Source: Escherichia phage T4. From it: DNA of 64,000 nucleotides. Shown piece by piece: positions 54,809 to 64,000 of the stretch. Under the pieces are notes generated by a model, which was not told the DNA's origin, did not search any database, and saw only the letters and a list, made by a program, of their open reading frames with translations. Each line of letters opens with the position of its first letter. Position 1 is the first letter of the stretch. The DNA lies in sequence record NC_000866.4. One strand, 5' to 3'. A program made the translations under genes and the position numbers.

Positions 54809-57800
54809 ATGGCCGAGATTAAAAGAGAATTCAGAGCAGAAGATGGTCTGGACGCAGGTGGTGATAAAATAATCAACGTAGCTTTAGCTGATCGTACCGT
54901 AGGAACTGACGGTGTTAACGTTGATTACTTAATTCAAGAAAACACAGTTCAACAGTATGATCCAACTCGTGGATATTTAAAAGATTTTGTAATCATTTAT
55001 GATAACCGCTTTTGGGCTGCTATAAATGATATTCCAAAACCAGCAGGAGCTTTTAATAGCGGACGCTGGAGAGCATTACGTACCGATGCTAACTGGATTA
55101 CGGTTTCATCTGGTTCATATCAATTAAAATCTGGTGAAGCAATTTCGGTTAACACCGCAGCTGGAAATGACATCACGTTTACTTTACCATCTTCTCCAAT
55201 TGATGGTGATACTATCGTTCTCCAAGATATTGGAGGAAAACCTGGAGTTAACCAAGTTTTAATTGTAGCTCCAGTACAAAGTATTGTAAACTTTAGAGGT
55301 GAACAGGTACGTTCAGTACTAATGACTCATCCAAAGTCACAGCTAGTTTTAATTTTTAGTAATCGTCTGTGGCAAATGTATGTTGCTGATTATAGTAGAG
55401 AAGCTATAGTTGTAACACCAGCGAATACTTATCAAGCGCAATCCAACGATTTTATCGTACGTAGATTTACTTCTGCTGCACCAATTAATGTCAAACTTCC
55501 AAGATTTGCTAATCATGGCGATATTATTAATTTCGTCGATTTAGATAAACTAAATCCGCTTTATCATACAATTGTTACTACATACGATGAAACGACTTCA
55601 GTACAAGAAGTTGGAACTCATTCCATTGAAGGCCGTACATCGATTGACGGTTTCTTGATGTTTGATGATAATGAGAAATTATGGAGACTGTTTGACGGGG
55701 ATAGTAAAGCGCGTTTACGTATCATAACGACTAATTCAAACATTCGTCCAAATGAAGAAGTTATGGTATTTGGTGCGAATAACGGAACAACTCAAACAAT
55801 TGAGCTTAAGCTTCCAACTAATATTTCTGTTGGTGATACTGTTAAAATTTCCATGAATTACATGAGAAAAGGACAAACAGTTAAAATCAAAGCTGCTGAT
55901 GAAGATAAAATTGCTTCTTCAGTTCAATTGCTGCAATTCCCAAAACGCTCAGAATATCCACCTGAAGCTGAATGGGTTACAGTTCAAGAATTAGTTTTTA
56001 ACGATGAAACTAATTATGTTCCAGTTTTGGAGCTTGCTTACATAGAAGATTCTGATGGAAAATATTGGGTTGTACAGCAAAACGTTCCAACTGTAGAAAG
56101 AGTAGATTCTTTAAATGATTCTACTAGAGCAAGATTAGGCGTAATTGCTTTAGCTACACAAGCTCAAGCTAATGTCGATTTAGAAAATTCTCCACAAAAA
56201 GAATTAGCAATTACTCCAGAAACGTTAGCTAATCGTACTGCTACAGAAACTCGCAGAGGTATTGCAAGAATAGCAACTACTGCTCAAGTGAATCAGAACA
56301 CCACATTCTCTTTTGCTGATGATATTATCATCACTCCTAAAAAGCTGAATGAAAGAACTGCTACAGAAACTCGTAGAGGTGTCGCAGAAATTGCTACGCA
56401 GCAAGAAACTAATGCAGGAACCGATGATACTACAATCATCACTCCTAAAAAGCTTCAAGCTCGTCAAGGTTCTGAATCATTATCTGGTATTGTAACCTTT
56501 GTATCTACTGCAGGTGCTACTCCAGCTTCTAGCCGTGAATTAAATGGTACGAATGTTTATAATAAAAACACTGATAATTTAGTTGTTTCACCTAAAGCTT
56601 TGGATCAGTATAAAGCTACTCCAACACAGCAAGGTGCAGTAATTTTAGCAGTTGAAAGTGAAGTAATTGCTGGACAAAGTCAGCAAGGATGGGCAAATGC
56701 TGTTGTAACGCCAGAAACGTTACATAAAAAGACATCAACTGATGGAAGAATTGGTTTAATTGAAATTGCTACGCAAAGTGAAGTTAATACAGGAACTGAT
56801 TATACTCGTGCAGTCACTCCTAAAACTTTAAATGACCGTAGAGCAACTGAAAGTTTAAGTGGTATAGCTGAAATTGCTACACAAGTTGAATTCGACGCAG
56901 GCGTCGACGATACTCGTATCTCTACACCATTAAAAATTAAAACCAGATTTAATAGTACTGATCGTACTTCTGTTGTTGCTCTATCTGGATTAGTTGAATC
57001 AGGAACTCTCTGGGACCATTATACACTTAATATTCTTGAAGCAAATGAGACACAACGTGGTACACTTCGTGTAGCTACGCAGGTCGAAGCTGCTGCGGGA
57101 ACATTAGATAATGTTTTAATAACTCCTAAAAAGCTTTTAGGTACTAAATCTACTGAAGCGCAAGAGGGTGTTATTAAAGTTGCAACTCAGTCTGAAACTG
57201 TGACTGGAACGTCAGCAAATACTGCTGTATCTCCAAAAAATTTAAAATGGATTGCGCAGAGTGAACCTACTTGGGCAGCTACTACTGCAATAAGAGGTTT
57301 TGTTAAAACTTCATCTGGTTCAATTACATTCGTTGGTAATGATACAGTCGGTTCTACCCAAGATTTAGAACTGTATGAGAAAAATAGCTATGCGGTATCA
57401 CCATATGAATTAAACCGTGTATTAGCAAATTATTTGCCACTAAAAGCAAAAGCTGCTGATACAAATTTATTGGATGGTCTAGATTCATCTCAGTTCATTC
57501 GTAGGGATATTGCACAGACGGTTAATGGTTCACTAACCTTAACCCAACAAACGAATCTGAGTGCCCCTCTTGTATCATCTAGTACTGGTGAATTTGGTGG
57601 TTCATTGGCCGCTAATAGAACATTTACCATCCGTAATACAGGAGCCCCGACTAGTATCGTTTTCGAAAAAGGTCCTGCATCCGGGGCAAATCCTGCACAG
57701 TCAATGAGTATTCGTGTATGGGGTAACCAATTTGGCGGCGGTAGTGATACGACCCGTTCGACAGTGTTTGAAGTTGGCGATGACACATCTCATCACTTTT

Positions 57801-58678
57801 ATTCTCAACGTAATAAAGACGGTAATATAGCGTTTAACATTAATGGTACTGTAATGCCAATAAACATTAATGCTTCCGGTTTGATGAATGTGAATGGCAC
57901 TGCAACATTCGGTCGTTCAGTTACAGCCAATGGTGAATTCATCAGCAAGTCTGCAAATGCTTTTAGAGCAATAAACGGTGATTACGGATTCTTTATTCGT
58001 AATGATGCCTCTAATACCTATTTTTTGCTCACTGCAGCCGGTGATCAGACTGGTGGTTTTAATGGATTACGCCCATTATTAATTAATAATCAATCCGGTC
58101 AGATTACAATTGGTGAAGGCTTAATCATTGCCAAAGGTGTTACTATAAATTCAGGCGGTTTAACTGTTAACTCGAGAATTCGTTCTCAGGGTACTAAAAC
58201 ATCTGATTTATATACCCGTGCGCCAACATCTGATACTGTAGGATTCTGGTCAATCGATATTAATGATTCAGCCACTTATAACCAGTTCCCGGGTTATTTT
58301 AAAATGGTTGAAAAAACTAATGAAGTGACTGGGCTTCCATACTTAGAACGTGGCGAAGAAGTTAAATCTCCTGGTACACTGACTCAGTTTGGTAACACAC
58401 TTGATTCGCTTTACCAAGATTGGATTACTTATCCAACGACGCCAGAAGCGCGTACCACTCGCTGGACACGTACATGGCAGAAAACCAAAAACTCTTGGTC
58501 AAGTTTTGTTCAGGTATTTGACGGAGGTAACCCTCCTCAACCATCTGATATCGGTGCTTTACCATCTGATAATGCTACAATGGGGAATCTTACTATTCGT
58601 GATTTCTTGCGAATTGGTAATGTTCGCATTGTTCCTGACCCAGTGAATAAAACGGTTAAATTTGAATGGGTTGAATAA
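54809..58678 (+). CDS. 34: Long tail fibre proximal subunit
   Basis: 1289-aa ORF with internal repeats; TATAAATA at 54767-54774; T4 gp34 length. Confidence 0.96.
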   Translation: MAEIKREFRAEDGLDAGGDKIINVALADRTVGTDGVNVDYLIQENTVQQYDPTRGYLKDFVIIYDNRFWAAINDIPKPAGAFNSGRWRALRTDANWITVSSGSYQLKSGEAISVNTAAGNDITFTLPSSPIDGDTIVLQDIGGKPGVNQVLIVAPVQSIVNFRGEQVRSVLMTHPKSQLVLIFSNRLWQMYVADYSREAIVVTPANTYQAQSNDFIVRRFTSAAPINVKLPRFANHGDIINFVDLDKLNPLYHTIVTTYDETTSVQEVGTHSIEGRTSIDGFLMFDDNEKLWRLFDGDSKARLRIITTNSNIRPNEEVMVFGANNGTTQTIELKLPTNISVGDTVKISMNYMRKGQTVKIKAADEDKIASSVQLLQFPKRSEYPPEAEWVTVQELVFNDETNYVPVLELAYIEDSDGKYWVVQQNVPTVERVDSLNDSTRARLGVIALATQAQANVDLENSPQKELAITPETLANRTATETRRGIARIATTAQVNQNTTFSFADDIIITPKKLNERTATETRRGVAEIATQQETNAGTDDTTIITPKKLQARQGSESLSGIVTFVSTAGATPASSRELNGTNVYNKNTDNLVVSPKALDQYKATPTQQGAVILAVESEVIAGQSQQGWANAVVTPETLHKKTSTDGRIGLIEIATQSEVNTGTDYTRAVTPKTLNDRRATESLSGIAEIATQVEFDAGVDDTRISTPLKIKTRFNSTDRTSVVALSGLVESGTLWDHYTLNILEANETQRGTLRVATQVEAAAGTLDNVLITPKKLLGTKSTEAQEGVIKVATQSETVTGTSANTAVSPKNLKWIAQSEPTWAATTAIRGFVKTSSGSITFVGNDTVGSTQDLELYEKNSYAVSPYELNRVLANYLPLKAKAADTNLLDGLDSSQFIRRDIAQTVNGSLTLTQQTNLSAPLVSSSTGEFGGSLAANRTFTIRNTGAPTSIVFEKGPASGANPAQSMSIRVWGNQFGGGSDTTRSTVFEVGDDTSHHFYSQRNKDGNIAFNINGTVMPININASGLMNVNGTATFGRSVTANGEFISKSANAFRAINGDYGFFIRNDASNTYFLLTAAGDQTGGFNGLRPLLINNQSGQITIGEGLIIAKGVTINSGGLTVNSRIRSQGTKTSDLYTRAPTSDTVGFWSIDINDSATYNQFPGYFKMVEKTNEVTGLPYLERGEEVKSPGTLTQFGNTLDSLYQDWITYPTTPEARTTRWTRTWQKTKNSWSSFVQVFDGGNPPQPSDIGALPSDNATMGNLTIRDFLRIGNVRIVPDPVNKTVKFEWVE

Positions 58679-58686
58679 GAGGTATT

Positions 58687-59805
58687 ATGGAAAAATTTAT
58701 GGCCGAGTTTGGACAAGGATATGTCCAAACGCCATTTTTATCGGAAAGTAATTCAGTAAGATATAAAATAAGTATAGCGGGTTCTTGCCCGCTTTCTACA
58801 GCAGGACCATCATATGTTAAATTTCAGGATAATCCTGTAGGAAGTCAAACATTTAGCGCAGGCCTCCATTTAAGAGTTTTTGACCCTTCCACCGGAGCAT
58901 TAGTTGATAGTAAGTCATATGCCTTTTCGACTTCAAATGATACTACATCAGCTGCTTTTGTTAGTTTCATGAATTCTTTGACGAATAATCGAATTGTTGC
59001 TATATTAACTAGTGGAAAGGTTAATTTTCCTCCTGAAGTAGTATCTTGGTTAAGAACCGCCGGAACGTCTGCCTTTCCATCTGATTCTATATTGTCAAGA
59101 TTTGACGTATCATATGCTGCTTTTTATACTTCTTCTAAAAGAGCTATCGCATTAGAGCATGTTAAACTGAGTAATAGAAAAAGCACAGATGATTATCAAA
59201 CTATTTTAGATGTTGTATTTGACAGTTTAGAAGATGTAGGGGCTACCGGGTTTCCAAGAGGAACGTATGAAAGTGTTGAGCAATTCATGTCGGCAGTTGG
59301 TGGAACTAATGACGAAATTGCGAGATTGCCAACTTCAGCTGCTATAAGTAAATTATCTGATTATAATTTAATTCCTGGAGATGTTCTTTATCTTAAAGCT
59401 CAGTTATATGCTGATGCTGATTTACTTGCTCTTGGAACTACAAATATATCTATCCGTTTTTATAATGCATCTAACGGATATATTTCTTCAACACAAGCTG
59501 AATTTACTGGGCAAGCTGGGTCATGGGAATTAAAGGAAGATTATGTAGTTGTTCCAGAAAACGCAGTAGGATTTACGATATACGCACAGAGAACTGCACA
59601 AGCTGGCCAAGGTGGCATGAGAAATTTAAGCTTTTCTGAAGTATCAAGAAATGGCGGCATTTCGAAACCTGCTGAATTTGGCGTCAATGGTATTCGTGTT
59701 AATTATATCTGCGAATCCGCTTCACCCCCGGATATAATGGTACTTCCTACGCAAGCATCGTCTAAAACTGGTAAAGTGTTTGGGCAAGAATTTAGAGAAG
59801 TTTAA
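58687..59805 (+). CDS. 35: Long tail fibre hinge connector
   Basis: 372-aa ORF; T4 gp35 length; terminator downstream. Confidence 0.93.
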   Translation: MEKFMAEFGQGYVQTPFLSESNSVRYKISIAGSCPLSTAGPSYVKFQDNPVGSQTFSAGLHLRVFDPSTGALVDSKSYAFSTSNDTTSAAFVSFMNSLTNNRIVAILTSGKVNFPPEVVSWLRTAGTSAFPSDSILSRFDVSYAAFYTSSKRAIALEHVKLSNRKSTDDYQTILDVVFDSLEDVGATGFPRGTYESVEQFMSAVGGTNDEIARLPTSAAISKLSDYNLIPGDVLYLKAQLYADADLLALGTTNISIRFYNASNGYISSTQAEFTGQAGSWELKEDYVVVPENAVGFTIYAQRTAQAGQGGMRNLSFSEVSRNGGISKPAEFGVNGIRVNYICESASPPDIMVLPTQASSKTGKVFGQEFREV

Positions 59806-59867: not shown

Positions 59868-60533
59868 ATGGCTGATTTAAAAGTAGGTTCAACAACTGGA
59901 GGCTCTGTCATTTGGCATCAAGGAAATTTTCCATTGAATCCAGCCGGTGACGATGTACTCTATAAATCATTTAAAATATATTCAGAATATAACAAACCAC
60001 AAGCTGCTGATAACGATTTCGTTTCTAAAGCTAATGGTGGTACTTATGCATCAAAGGTAACATTTAACGCTGGCATTCAAGTCCCATATGCTCCAAACAT
60101 CATGAGCCCATGCGGGATTTATGGGGGTAACGGTGATGGTGCTACTTTTGATAAAGCAAATATCGATATTGTTTCATGGTATGGCGTAGGATTTAAATCG
60201 TCATTTGGTTCAACAGGCCGAACTGTTGTAATTAATACACGCAATGGTGATATTAACACAAAAGGTGTTGTGTCGGCAGCTGGTCAAGTAAGAAGTGGTG
60301 CGGCTGCTCCTATAGCAGCGAATGACCTTACTAGAAAGGACTATGTTGATGGAGCAATAAATACTGTTACTGCAAATGCAAACTCTAGGGTGCTACGGTC
60401 TGGTGACACCATGACAGGTAATTTAACAGCGCCAAACTTTTTCTCGCAGAATCCTGCATCTCAACCCTCACACGTTCCACGATTTGACCAAATCGTAATT
60501 AAGGATTCTGTTCAAGATTTCGGCTATTATTAA
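59868..60533 (+). CDS. 36: Long tail fibre distal subunit (small)
   Basis: 221-aa ORF; TATAAATA at 59837-59844; T4 gp36 length. Confidence 0.93.
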
Positions 60534-60541
60534 GAGGACTT

Positions 60542-63500
60542 ATGGCTACTTTAAAACAAATACAATTTAAAAGAAGCAAAATCGCAGGAACACGTCCTGC
60601 TGCTTCAGTATTAGCCGAAGGTGAATTGGCTATAAACTTAAAAGATAGAACAATTTTTACTAAAGATGATTCAGGAAATATCATCGATCTAGGTTTTGCT
60701 AAAGGCGGGCAAGTTGATGGCAACGTTACTATTAACGGACTTTTGAGATTAAATGGCGATTATGTACAAACAGGTGGAATGACTGTAAACGGACCCATTG
60801 GTTCTACTGATGGCGTCACTGGAAAAATTTTCAGATCTACACAGGGTTCATTTTATGCAAGAGCAACAAACGATACTTCAAATGCCCATTTATGGTTTGA
60901 AAATGCCGATGGCACTGAACGTGGCGTTATATATGCTCGCCCTCAAACTACAACTGACGGTGAAATACGCCTTAGGGTTAGACAAGGAACAGGAAGCACT
61001 GCCAACAGTGAATTCTATTTCCGCTCTATAAATGGAGGCGAATTTCAGGCTAACCGTATTTTAGCATCAGATTCGTTAGTAACAAAACGCATTGCGGTTG
61101 ATACCGTTATTCATGATGCCAAAGCATTTGGACAATATGATTCTCACTCTTTGGTTAATTATGTTTATCCTGGAACCGGTGAAACAAATGGTGTAAACTA
61201 TCTTCGTAAAGTTCGCGCTAAGTCCGGTGGTACAATTTATCATGAAATTGTTACTGCACAAACAGGCCTGGCTGATGAAGTTTCTTGGTGGTCTGGTGAT
61301 ACACCAGTATTTAAACTATACGGTATTCGTGACGATGGCAGAATGATTATCCGTAATAGCCTTGCATTAGGTACATTCACTACAAATTTCCCGTCTAGTG
61401 ATTATGGCAACGTCGGTGTAATGGGCGATAAGTATCTTGTTCTCGGCGACACTGTAACTGGCTTGTCATACAAAAAAACTGGTGTATTTGATCTAGTTGG
61501 CGGTGGATATTCTGTTGCTTCTATTACTCCTGACAGTTTCCGTAGTACTCGTAAAGGTATATTTGGTCGTTCTGAGGACCAAGGCGCAACTTGGATAATG
61601 CCTGGTACAAATGCTGCTCTCTTGTCTGTTCAAACACAAGCTGATAATAACAATGCTGGAGACGGACAAACCCATATCGGGTACAATGCTGGCGGTAAAA
61701 TGAACCACTATTTCCGTGGTACAGGTCAGATGAATATCAATACCCAACAAGGTATGGAAATTAACCCGGGTATTTTGAAATTGGTAACTGGCTCTAATAA
61801 TGTACAATTTTACGCTGACGGAACTATTTCTTCCATTCAACCTATTAAATTAGATAACGAGATATTTTTAACTAAATCTAATAATACTGCGGGTCTTAAA
61901 TTTGGAGCTCCTAGCCAAGTTGATGGCACAAGGACTATCCAATGGAACGGTGGTACTCGCGAAGGACAGAATAAAAACTATGTGATTATTAAAGCATGGG
62001 GTAACTCATTTAATGCCACTGGTGATAGATCTCGCGAAACGGTTTTCCAAGTATCAGATAGTCAAGGATATTATTTTTATGCTCATCGTAAAGCTCCAAC
62101 CGGCGACGAAACTATTGGACGTATTGAAGCTCAATTTGCTGGGGATGTTTATGCTAAAGGTATTATTGCCAACGGAAATTTTAGAGTTGTTGGGTCAAGC
62201 GCTTTAGCCGGCAATGTTACTATGTCTAACGGTTTGTTTGTCCAAGGTGGTTCTTCTATTACTGGACAAGTTAAAATTGGCGGAACAGCAAACGCACTGA
62301 GAATTTGGAACGCTGAATATGGTGCTATTTTCCGTCGTTCGGAAAGTAACTTTTATATTATTCCAACCAATCAAAATGAAGGAGAAAGTGGAGACATTCA
62401 CAGCTCTTTGAGACCTGTGAGAATAGGATTAAACGATGGCATGGTTGGGTTAGGAAGAGATTCTTTTATAGTAGATCAAAATAATGCTTTAACTACGATA
62501 AACAGTAACTCTCGCATTAATGCCAACTTTAGAATGCAATTGGGGCAGTCGGCATACATTGATGCAGAATGTACTGATGCTGTTCGCCCGGCGGGTGCAG
62601 GTTCATTTGCTTCCCAGAATAATGAAGACGTCCGTGCGCCGTTCTATATGAATATTGATAGAACTGATGCTAGTGCATATGTTCCTATTTTGAAACAACG
62701 TTATGTTCAAGGCAATGGCTGCTATTCATTAGGGACTTTAATTAATAATGGTAATTTCCGAGTTCATTACCATGGCGGCGGAGATAACGGTTCTACAGGT
62801 CCACAGACTGCTGATTTTGGATGGGAATTTATTAAAAACGGTGATTTTATTTCACCTCGCGATTTAATAGCAGGCAAAGTCAGATTTGATAGAACTGGTA
62901 ATATCACTGGTGGTTCTGGTAATTTTGCTAACTTAAACAGTACAATTGAATCACTTAAAACTGATATCATGTCGAGTTACCCAATTGGTGCTCCGATTCC
63001 TTGGCCGAGTGATTCAGTTCCTGCTGGATTTGCTTTGATGGAAGGTCAGACCTTTGATAAGTCCGCATATCCAAAGTTAGCTGTTGCATATCCTAGCGGT
63101 GTTATTCCAGATATGCGCGGGCAAACTATCAAGGGTAAACCAAGTGGTCGTGCTGTTTTGAGCGCTGAGGCAGATGGTGTTAAGGCTCATAGCCATAGTG
63201 CATCGGCTTCAAGTACTGACTTAGGTACTAAAACCACATCAAGCTTTGACTATGGTACGAAGGGAACTAACAGTACGGGTGGACACACTCACTCTGGTAG
63301 TGGTTCTACTAGCACAAATGGTGAGCACAGCCACTACATCGAGGCATGGAATGGTACTGGTGTAGGTGGTAATAAGATGTCATCATATGCCATATCATAC
63401 AGGGCGGGTGGGAGTAACACTAATGCAGCAGGGAACCACAGTCACACTTTCTCTTTTGGGACTAGCAGTGCTGGCGACCATTCCCACTCTGTAGGTATTG

Positions 63501-63622
63501 GTGCTCATACCCACACGGTAGCAATTGGATCACATGGTCATACTATCACTGTAAATAGTACAGGTAATACAGAAAACACGGTTAAAAACATTGCTTTTAA
63601 CTATATCGTTCGTTTAGCATAA
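60542..63622 (+). CDS. 37: Long tail fibre distal subunit / receptor-binding adhesin
   Basis: 1026-aa ORF with C-terminal His-x-His repeats; T4 gp37 length. Confidence 0.96.
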
Positions 63623-63651
63623 GGAGAGGGGCTTCGGCCCTTCTAAATATG
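63623..63651 (+). promoter_or_regulatory. Gene 38 translation initiation region with hairpin between SD and AUG
   Basis: GGAG is 22 nt upstream of the ATG; a GGGC-UUCG-GCCC tetraloop hairpin lies between them. Confidence 0.65.
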
Positions 63652-64000
63652 AAAATATATCATTATTATTTTGACACTAAAGAATTTTACAAAGAAGAAA
63701 ATTACAAACCGGTTAAAGGCCTCGGTCTTCCTGCTCATTCAACAATTAAAAAACCTTTAGAACCTAAAGAAGGATACGCGGTTGTATTTGATGAACGTAC
63801 TCAGGATTGGATTTATGAAGAAGACCATCGCGGAAAACGCGCATGGACTTTTAATAAAGAAGAAATTTTTATAAGTGACATTGGAAGCCCGGTTGGTATA
63901 ACTTTCGATGAGCCCGGCGAATTTGATATATGGACTGATGACGGTTGGAAAGAAGACGAAACATATAAGCGAGTTTTAATTCGTAATAGAAAAATTGAAG
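63649..64000 (+). CDS. 38: Tail fibre assembly chaperone, 5' partial
   Basis: ATG at 63649 opens MKIYHYYFDTKEFYKEENYKPVKG..., recognised as the T4 gp38 N-terminus; runs off the window edge. Confidence 0.88.
   Translation, partial: MKIYHYYFDTKEFYKEENYKPVKGLGLPAHSTIKKPLEPKEGYAVVFDERTQDWIYEEDHRGKRAWTFNKEEIFISDIGSPVGITFDEPGEFDIWTDDGWKEDETYKRVLIRNRKIE

Follow-up and report, generated by a model that had tools for sequence, protein, structure and literature searches.

The 3' end of gene 37 in the window (the whole stretch of 64,000 nucleotides of Escherichia phage T4 DNA that we analyzed, from NC_000866.4) almost certainly encodes the needle domain (D11) of the long tail fiber protein gp37, in which seven HxH motifs with their seven irons form a scaffold that bears a histidine-free recognition tip. 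The histidines of these motifs are buried elements of the scaffold or of its folding, not determinants of specificity. The seven-iron needle is already known: all that is essential about it has been in print since 2010, and Pfam has a curated family for the HxH repeat (PF03335). The region serves as a positive control, since the original prediction had the gene, the number of motifs, and the binding of metal right from the letters alone. Our own observations are the identity of the protein, the positions of the motifs, their non-randomness, their conservation, and the Pfam membership. The iron, its geometry, the lethality of mutations, and the mapping of the receptor contacts come from the literature.

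Four adjacent open reading frames lie on the + strand at the end of the window: 54809-58678 (1289 amino acids), 58687-59805 (372), 59868-60533 (221), and 60542-63622 (1026). The gene order is 34, 35, 36, 37, 38, all on a single strand. (The three reading frames upstream of gene 37 were named from size and position only.) The fourth reading frame is the gene of interest:

60542..63622, + strand: gene 37, phage T4 long tail fiber distal subunit gp37, 1026 amino acids plus stop (open reading frame, DNA identity, PHROG)

The original prediction had named this gene as the one for gp37, and the name is correct. In a sequence search of the PDB, residues 785-1026 were identical at 242 of 242 positions to "long tail fiber protein P37" in PDB 2XGF (Bartual et al. 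2010, PNAS 107:20287). That entry has three chains, each with the T4 gp37 sequence and the same seven HxH motifs; the protein does not differ from the gp37 in the window. Over 62600-63700, the DNA shows 100% identity to record J02509.1 (T4 genes 37 and 38); its identity to 18 further records of the T4 type (T4, T4T, RB55, RB59) is 99.6-99.9%. In the matching T4-type records, gene 37 is annotated as "long tail fiber distal subunit" and is followed by gp38, "distal long tail fiber assembly catalyst". gp37 also matches PHROG 1699, the long tail fiber distal subunit (E = 1.8e-278). Each of the five alternative frames across 63180-63570 contains 5-17 stop codons, and no minus-strand open reading frame of at least 50 amino acids overlaps this region, so the gp37 frame is its sole coding reading. 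We therefore rejected an overlapping gene in another frame or on the other strand.

We then examined the HxH motifs, which are given here from the translation:

63188..63196, + strand: HxH motif 1, H883-S-H885
63284..63292, + strand: HxH motif 2, H915-T-H917
63326..63334, + strand: HxH motif 3, H929-S-H931, which adjoins the tip
63437..63445, + strand: HxH motif 4, H966-S-H968
63479..63487, + strand: HxH motif 5, H980-S-H982, which opens a 9-residue tandem, G-x-H-x-H-[ST]-[VI]-x-I
63506..63514, + strand: HxH motif 6, H989-T-H991
63533..63541, + strand: HxH motif 7, H998-G-H1000

These are the motifs that had been predicted (HSH, HTH, HSH, HSH, HSH, HTH, HGH), alike in order and in middle residues, and the predicted region (63180-63570, or residues 880-1010) encloses all seven. 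They were said to lie in the last ~130 residues, which is too short: they spread over the last 144 residues, and 26 residues lie between motif 7 and the C-terminus. There were also said to be at least seven of them. Seven are indeed present, but the region contains exactly seven, and an eighth H-x-H (HYH, residues 742-744) lies far upstream of the needle. All 14 histidines in the last 150 residues of gp37 fall within H-x-H pairs. As predicted, the context is rich in glycine, serine, and threonine (69 of these 150 residues, or 46%), and in six of the seven motifs a glycine stands two residues ahead of the first histidine. Motifs 5-7 are exactly 9 residues apart (GDHSHSVGI, GAHTHTVAI, GSHGHTITV).

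Could the motifs be a chance clustering of histidines? When we shuffled the whole protein (n = 20,000), there were 0.54 HxH motifs on average and at most 6; when we shuffled only the histidine-rich last 150 residues (n = 20,000), the average was 1.2 and the maximum was again 6. Since seven motifs arose in 0 of 20,000 shuffles of either type, we rejected chance. The 148-residue needle segment also matches PF03335 ("Phage tail fibre repeat") with 43.1 bits, versus a cut-off of 20, in six repeat stretches. (With the whole of gp37 as the query, the score is 31 bits; the repeat units have 14 residues.) The top-scoring repeat, residues 924-937, lies over motif 3.

To place the motifs within the fiber, we used the published domain limits:

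62972..63184, + strand: collar domain D10, first part, residues 811-881 (PF07484; limits from PMC6957217)
63185..63334, + strand: needle domain D11 stem, outgoing limb, residues 882-931, with motifs 1-3 (limits from PMC6957217)
[quoted passage not shown]
63419..63568, + strand: needle domain D11 stem, returning limb, residues 960-1009, with motifs 4-7 (limits from PMC6957217)
63569..63619, + strand: collar domain D10, second part, residues 1010-1026 (limits from PMC6957217)

In other words, the needle (882-1009) is inserted into the collar, and the tip is inserted into the stem (PMC6957217). The collar is also recognized by Pfam (PF07484, residues 816-863, 42.4 bits versus a cut-off of 24). 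When our motif coordinates are placed on this map, seven of seven motifs are in the stem and none are in the tip.

Three papers that describe the structure report seven iron ions in line within the gp37 needle, coordinated by the histidines of the HxH motifs, with iron identified by crystallography (PMC6957217, PMC11705849, PMC6116203). This bears out the metal-coordinating arrangement that had been proposed from the motifs. According to two of these papers, each HxH motif, taken from three chains, makes an octahedral iron site with six histidines on the trimer axis (PMC6116203, PMC6957217). The numbers in the sequence fit one metal per motif: seven motifs with two histidines in each of three chains give 42 histidines, which makes six for each iron.

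At least two of the histidines are also required. Mutating either histidine of motif 3 (H929A or H931A) leads to a total loss of plaque formation, and H929 belongs to an iron site according to the same paper (PMC6957217). For the other twelve histidines, the support comes from conservation and from the structure as described in these papers.

The location of the motifs matters for what the histidines do. The original prediction placed the histidine pairs at the distal tip of the fiber and held that they determine host recognition. The needle domain is indeed at the end of the fiber, but its tip subdomain contains none of the pairs. One could still argue that exposed histidines, or the metal that they bind, contact lipopolysaccharide (LPS) or OmpC and so set the host range: the motifs are within the C-terminal part of gp37 that has the adhesin function (PMC3157838), and the loss of plaques in H929A and H931A (PMC6957217) is what this would lead one to expect. 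But it is the tip subdomain that touches LPS and OmpC, and the residues that alter binding to LPS or OmpC are 933-953 (PMC6957217). Also, the crystal structure, as these papers describe it, contradicts such a role: the histidines surround iron that is buried at the axis of the trimer (PMC6957217, PMC6116203). We consider a receptor-binding role for the histidines to be extremely improbable. Because all seven motifs are in the stem and none are in the tip, the histidines belong to the scaffold and not to the recognition surface.

Conservation separates the histidines from the tip as well. A homolog search with the collar and needle as the query found 1,405 proteins, and we computed conservation from the best 120 clusters, which are 53-71% identical. 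(These are tail fiber proteins; the names, where given, are from E. coli, Shigella, or Enterobacter.) Among these 120 relatives, the 14 histidine columns were 96% conserved and the other stem positions 66%, whereas mean identity to T4 was 17% for residues 932-965, which comprise the tip and the six residues after it. Conserved histidines and a hypervariable tip are the opposite of what we would see if the histidines determined specificity. Rather, conserved histidines around a hypervariable stretch that separates motif 3 from motif 4 are as expected for a scaffold that carries a specificity loop. The histidines are conserved, and the two of motif 3 are needed, so the prediction is not refuted in these respects, but host recognition maps elsewhere.

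A broader sample gave similar results. In an exhaustive search of cluster representatives (at 50% identity) with the 148-residue needle as the query, 429 clusters matched at E ≤ 0.001. In 136 aligned representatives, mean identity to T4 across residues 932-965 was 12%. The histidines of motifs 5-7 were invariant (136 of 136). The histidines of motif 1 were present in 120 of 120 close relatives and in 127-128 of the 136 representatives, and those of motif 2 in 91 of 120 and in 132-133 of 136. For motifs 3 and 4, the counts were 119-120 of 120 and 120 of 120 in the close relatives and 65-99 of 136 in the representatives, where the shortfall is in part misalignment near the indel-rich tip and in part true loss. 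A subgroup of relatives truly lacks motif 2, and its returning limb is one unit shorter. Some members of the family lack motif 2, 3, or 4 or have it out of alignment, so the fold does not require all of the sites. Representatives have between 4 and 10 motifs, most often 7 (five motifs in 40 of 142 representatives), apart from a single one that has none. Across the representatives, 94% of the histidines within the last 220 residues belong to HxH motifs. The 11-residue C-terminal ending of gp37 is also strongly conserved among relatives.

Prophage fibers of E. coli, Shigella, and Enterobacter and the T4-type gp37 proteins of T-even phages resemble T4 in having both PF07484 and PF03335, most of the HxH positions, and the 11-residue ending. 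They differ from T4 in the stretch that links motif 3 to motif 4, which is unrelated (17% identity), in the number of HxH units (4-10), and in their N-terminal shafts. The side tail fiber Stf of phage lambda is said to have been reported by Bartual et al. as a close homolog of gp37.

In these relatives, the returning limb grows by 9-residue units of the form G-x-H-x-H-T-V-A-I, and the outgoing limb grows by units of the form [FY]DY-G-T-K. Among 236 complete C-termini, the number of terminal HxH units was correlated with the number of [FY]DY repeats (Spearman correlation = 0.76, with shared ancestry ignored). For example, 156 sequences have a run of three HxH units with one FDY, and 45 have a run of four with two FDY. 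This co-variation is as expected for a needle whose two antiparallel limbs must keep equal length. These sequence comparisons suggest that the length of the needle is modular, and we infer that the HxH nonapeptides of the returning limb pair with the FDY repeats of the outgoing limb.

The variation in repeat number also bears on another idea, which is that the DNA encoding the HxH motifs serves mainly as patches of homology, through which recombination or duplication swaps or multiplies the variable tip segment. Imperfect direct repeats of 12-34 nucleotides do connect the segments that encode the motifs. Repeat D1 has four copies of 19 nucleotides with 68-100% identity, and repeat D7 pairs CACACTCACTCT with CACAGTCACACT. 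The number of HxH units among relatives (4 to 10) is in keeping with such exchanges, and the titles of papers on the subject report duplications that affect host range and recombination between conserved motifs. But the repeats are short, most of the identities are low (68-85%), and the codons differ (CAT or CAC for histidine; AGC, TCC, ACT, or GGT between the histidines). Since the codons differ among the motifs, selection acts on the protein and not on the nucleotides. We rejected conservation of DNA repeats as the primary signal for these reasons. Exchange through the repeats would be at most a secondary consequence of them and is no substitute for metal binding, so we think that it is unlikely to be the main role of this DNA. 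(In papers on duplication and recombination in gp37, the motifs at the junctions are reportedly named "His boxes". A literature search for "His box" together with gp37 and tail fiber found no paper in the collection that was searched.)

We also compared the gp37 sites to other metal sites of this kind. In the fibers of R1 and R2 pyocins and in the spikes of phages P2 (gpV) and phi92, HxH motifs from three chains form an octahedral iron site with six histidines on the trimer axis (PMC6116203), just as in gp37. These proteins have one such site per trimer, versus seven in gp37, and their folds differ. With the needle segment alone as the query, a search of PDB sequences at E values up to 10 found only 2XGF, so the sites in pyocins and spikes are analogs and not detectable homologs. 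The short tail fiber of T4 (gp12) is closer: it shares the collar fold with D10 of gp37 and has one HxH metal site (PMC6116203, PMC6957217). That single site was modeled as zinc, and gp12, whose gene is outside the window, lacks the seven-site needle insertion. In a PDB sequence search, the gp37 collar also matched a related short tail fiber (PDB 9CUY; E = 5.5e-07).

The zinc in gp12 raises the question of whether the native gp37 sites carry zinc or another divalent metal instead of iron. The same HxH motif holds zinc in the crystal structure of gp12 (PMC6116203), and iron and zinc are indistinguishable from sequence alone. However, three papers report iron for gp37 itself from crystallography (PMC6957217, PMC11705849, PMC6116203). 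Furthermore, the zinc in gp12 may be an artifact that arose when the protein was refolded with a zinc salt, and iron is "more common" for HxH sites (PMC6116203). A metal other than iron in native gp37 seems very improbable.

Taken together, the needle is built as follows. The three gp37 chains go out to the tip of the fiber and return, which gives a six-stranded antiparallel beta needle. At the three-fold axis, each HxH motif joins its two symmetry-related copies, so that six imidazoles hold one iron octahedrally. The seven irons, in a row along the core of the needle, are buried cross-links and probably register points. Together with the chaperones gp38 and gp57A, the irons probably allow chains that are rich in glycine, serine, and threonine, with little hydrophobic core, to fold. 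The product of folding is a very stable, SDS-resistant trimer. Host recognition is left to the tip (932-959), an insertion that separates motif 3 from motif 4, and the HxH array presents this variable tip. In PMC6116203, it is no more than an idea that buried metals may serve as "reference points" by which the three chains align as they fold. We likewise infer that the irons nucleate folding and set the register. The needle accounts for the high stability of the T4 long tail fibers, and it is the scaffold on which the host range is engineered by changing the tip loops.

The iron sites of gp37 also prompted the idea that iron is held in phage particles at sea, and a related hypothesis gives the iron a purpose that is not purely structural. 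In the Ferrojan Horse (or Trojan Horse) hypothesis, the iron in the fiber is bait for siderophore receptors, or it is a sizeable pool or donor of iron. This published hypothesis is explicitly founded on the HxH sites of T4 gp37 (PMC11705849), and fiber tips with HxH motifs are widespread, as the 429 clusters that match the 148-residue segment illustrate. But T4 uses LPS and OmpC and not siderophore receptors, and it binds them through the histidine-free tip (PMC6957217). Also, the iron in gp37 is buried in the core, according to PMC6116203, and we found no supporting experiment in the papers on gp37 iron that we consulted. We would give this hypothesis hardly any weight for T4. More generally, it is improbable that the irons are more than static rivets, whether because assembly is tied to the iron supply of the host or because the iron in the fiber is used. 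If assembly of the fiber does depend on iron, then the output of infective T4 would be coupled to the iron status of the cell. A separate proposal, that the HYH at residues 742-744 is an eighth axial metal site, seems similarly improbable to us.

Finally, we considered the T2-type arrangement of the fiber and the sequence downstream of gene 37, which includes these features:

63625..63644, + strand: intercistronic hairpin with a UUCG loop, between the AAGGAG Shine-Dalgarno sequence (63621-63626) and the AUG of gene 38 (63649)
63649..64000, + strand: gene 38, 5' part, which exits the window (T4 annotation; PHROG 105, "tail fiber assembly", E = 8e-34)

Fibers of the T2/T6 type have the same organization of genes 34-38 and the same role in host recognition as in T4 (PMC3157838). 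In T2 and T6, gp37 is cleaved and is capped by the gp38 adhesin, whereas in T4 the adhesin is a C-terminal extension of gp37 and gp38 is only a chaperone (PMC3157838). This chaperone is required for the folding of the C-terminal region of T4 gp37 (PMC6957217, PMC3157838). We rejected a T2-type tip, with a gp38 adhesin of ~260 amino acids, for the DNA in the window: gene 38 matches families of tail fiber assembly proteins and is annotated as an assembly catalyst. According to the annotation of the T4 record, the T2-type gp38 is unrelated to the gp38 of T4. (Pfam gave no match in the 117-residue fragment of gp38 that is in the window.)

The hairpin between genes 37 and 38 has a predicted folding energy of -16.7 kcal/mol (z = -3.2). 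Rfam gave no family in the whole window at the gathering threshold. The hairpin upstream of gene 38 has been published as a split-Shine-Dalgarno translational enhancer (PMC3014915). Within it, 3' of the stop codon of gene 37 and in non-coding DNA, the window has one C fewer than the 18 T4-type records do.

The cluster of His-x-His motifs in gp37 (the distal subunit of the long tail fibre) is unique within the 64-kb window, because the other ORFs of at least 150 amino acids, across the whole window, each contain at most one such motif. Besides the seven motifs in the needle stem (residues 883-1000), gp37 has an eighth, which lies 5' of the crystallised fragment (this starts at residue 785):

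62765-62773, + strand: eighth His-x-His motif, H742-Y-H744 of gp37

Across eight T-even gp37 sequences with 37-83% identity, His742 is invariant (8/8). His744 is present in the six closer sequences and is replaced by lysine in the two most distant ones. We searched the PDB for gp37 chains other than the crystallised fragment from residue 785 and found none. H742-Y-H744 could be an additional axial metal site, but need not be.

We also compared the needle among relatives of gp37. The numbers of His-x-His and FDY-type units, which lie on the two limbs of the needle, co-vary (Spearman correlation of 0.76 across 236 relatives, ignoring shared ancestry). In some relatives (P0084 and P0159), the needle is lengthened to 9-10 His-x-His units, with corresponding additional FDYGTK-type repeats on the opposite limb. 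Together, the co-varying unit numbers and the extended needles suggest that needle length is modular.

Other parts of gp37 resemble gp34, the proximal fibre subunit. Residues 466-681 (window 61937-62584) and 98-166 (60833-61039) match structures of gp34. (The internal parts of gp37 match 4UXE, 5NXF, and 9X3R with E values of 1e-8 to 1e-10, and 9F4A with E = 2.7e-12.) Pfam's Gp34_trimer also matches internal parts of gp37, at 25.5 bits, which is slightly below the cut-off of 27. These similarities indicate that gp37 and gp34, the two halves of the long fibre, have shaft modules in common.

Just downstream of gp37 are three elements that precede or begin gene 38:

63621-63626, + strand: AAGGAG Shine-Dalgarno sequence, directly after the gp37 stop codon
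63625-63632 / 63637-63644, + strand: stem (8 bp) of a UUCG-loop hairpin, 3' of the Shine-Dalgarno sequence
63649, + strand: AUG of gene 38, 3' of the hairpin

This stretch (63621-63651) is the ribosome binding site of T4 gene 38 that has been published as "split" (PMC3014915): its hairpin cuts the spacing between the Shine-Dalgarno sequence and the AUG from 22 nt to 5 nt. The computed fold of the hairpin has an energy of -16.7 kcal/mol (z = -3.2). No Rfam family reached its gathering score anywhere in the window (1-64000).

At 63637-63640, the window reads GGGGCTTCGGCCC-T, versus GGGGCTTCGGCCCCT in the T4 genome MT984581, which has one extra C. Another 17 T4-type records align over 1102 bases, one more than the 1101 of the compared part of the window, with the extra base somewhere along that alignment. 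Among the T4-type records compared, only J02509.1, from the 1980s, matches the window exactly. The missing C is probably either a gel compression error from early Sanger sequencing of a G+C-rich hairpin or a difference between laboratory strains. The difference is non-coding, and the hairpin folds with either version.
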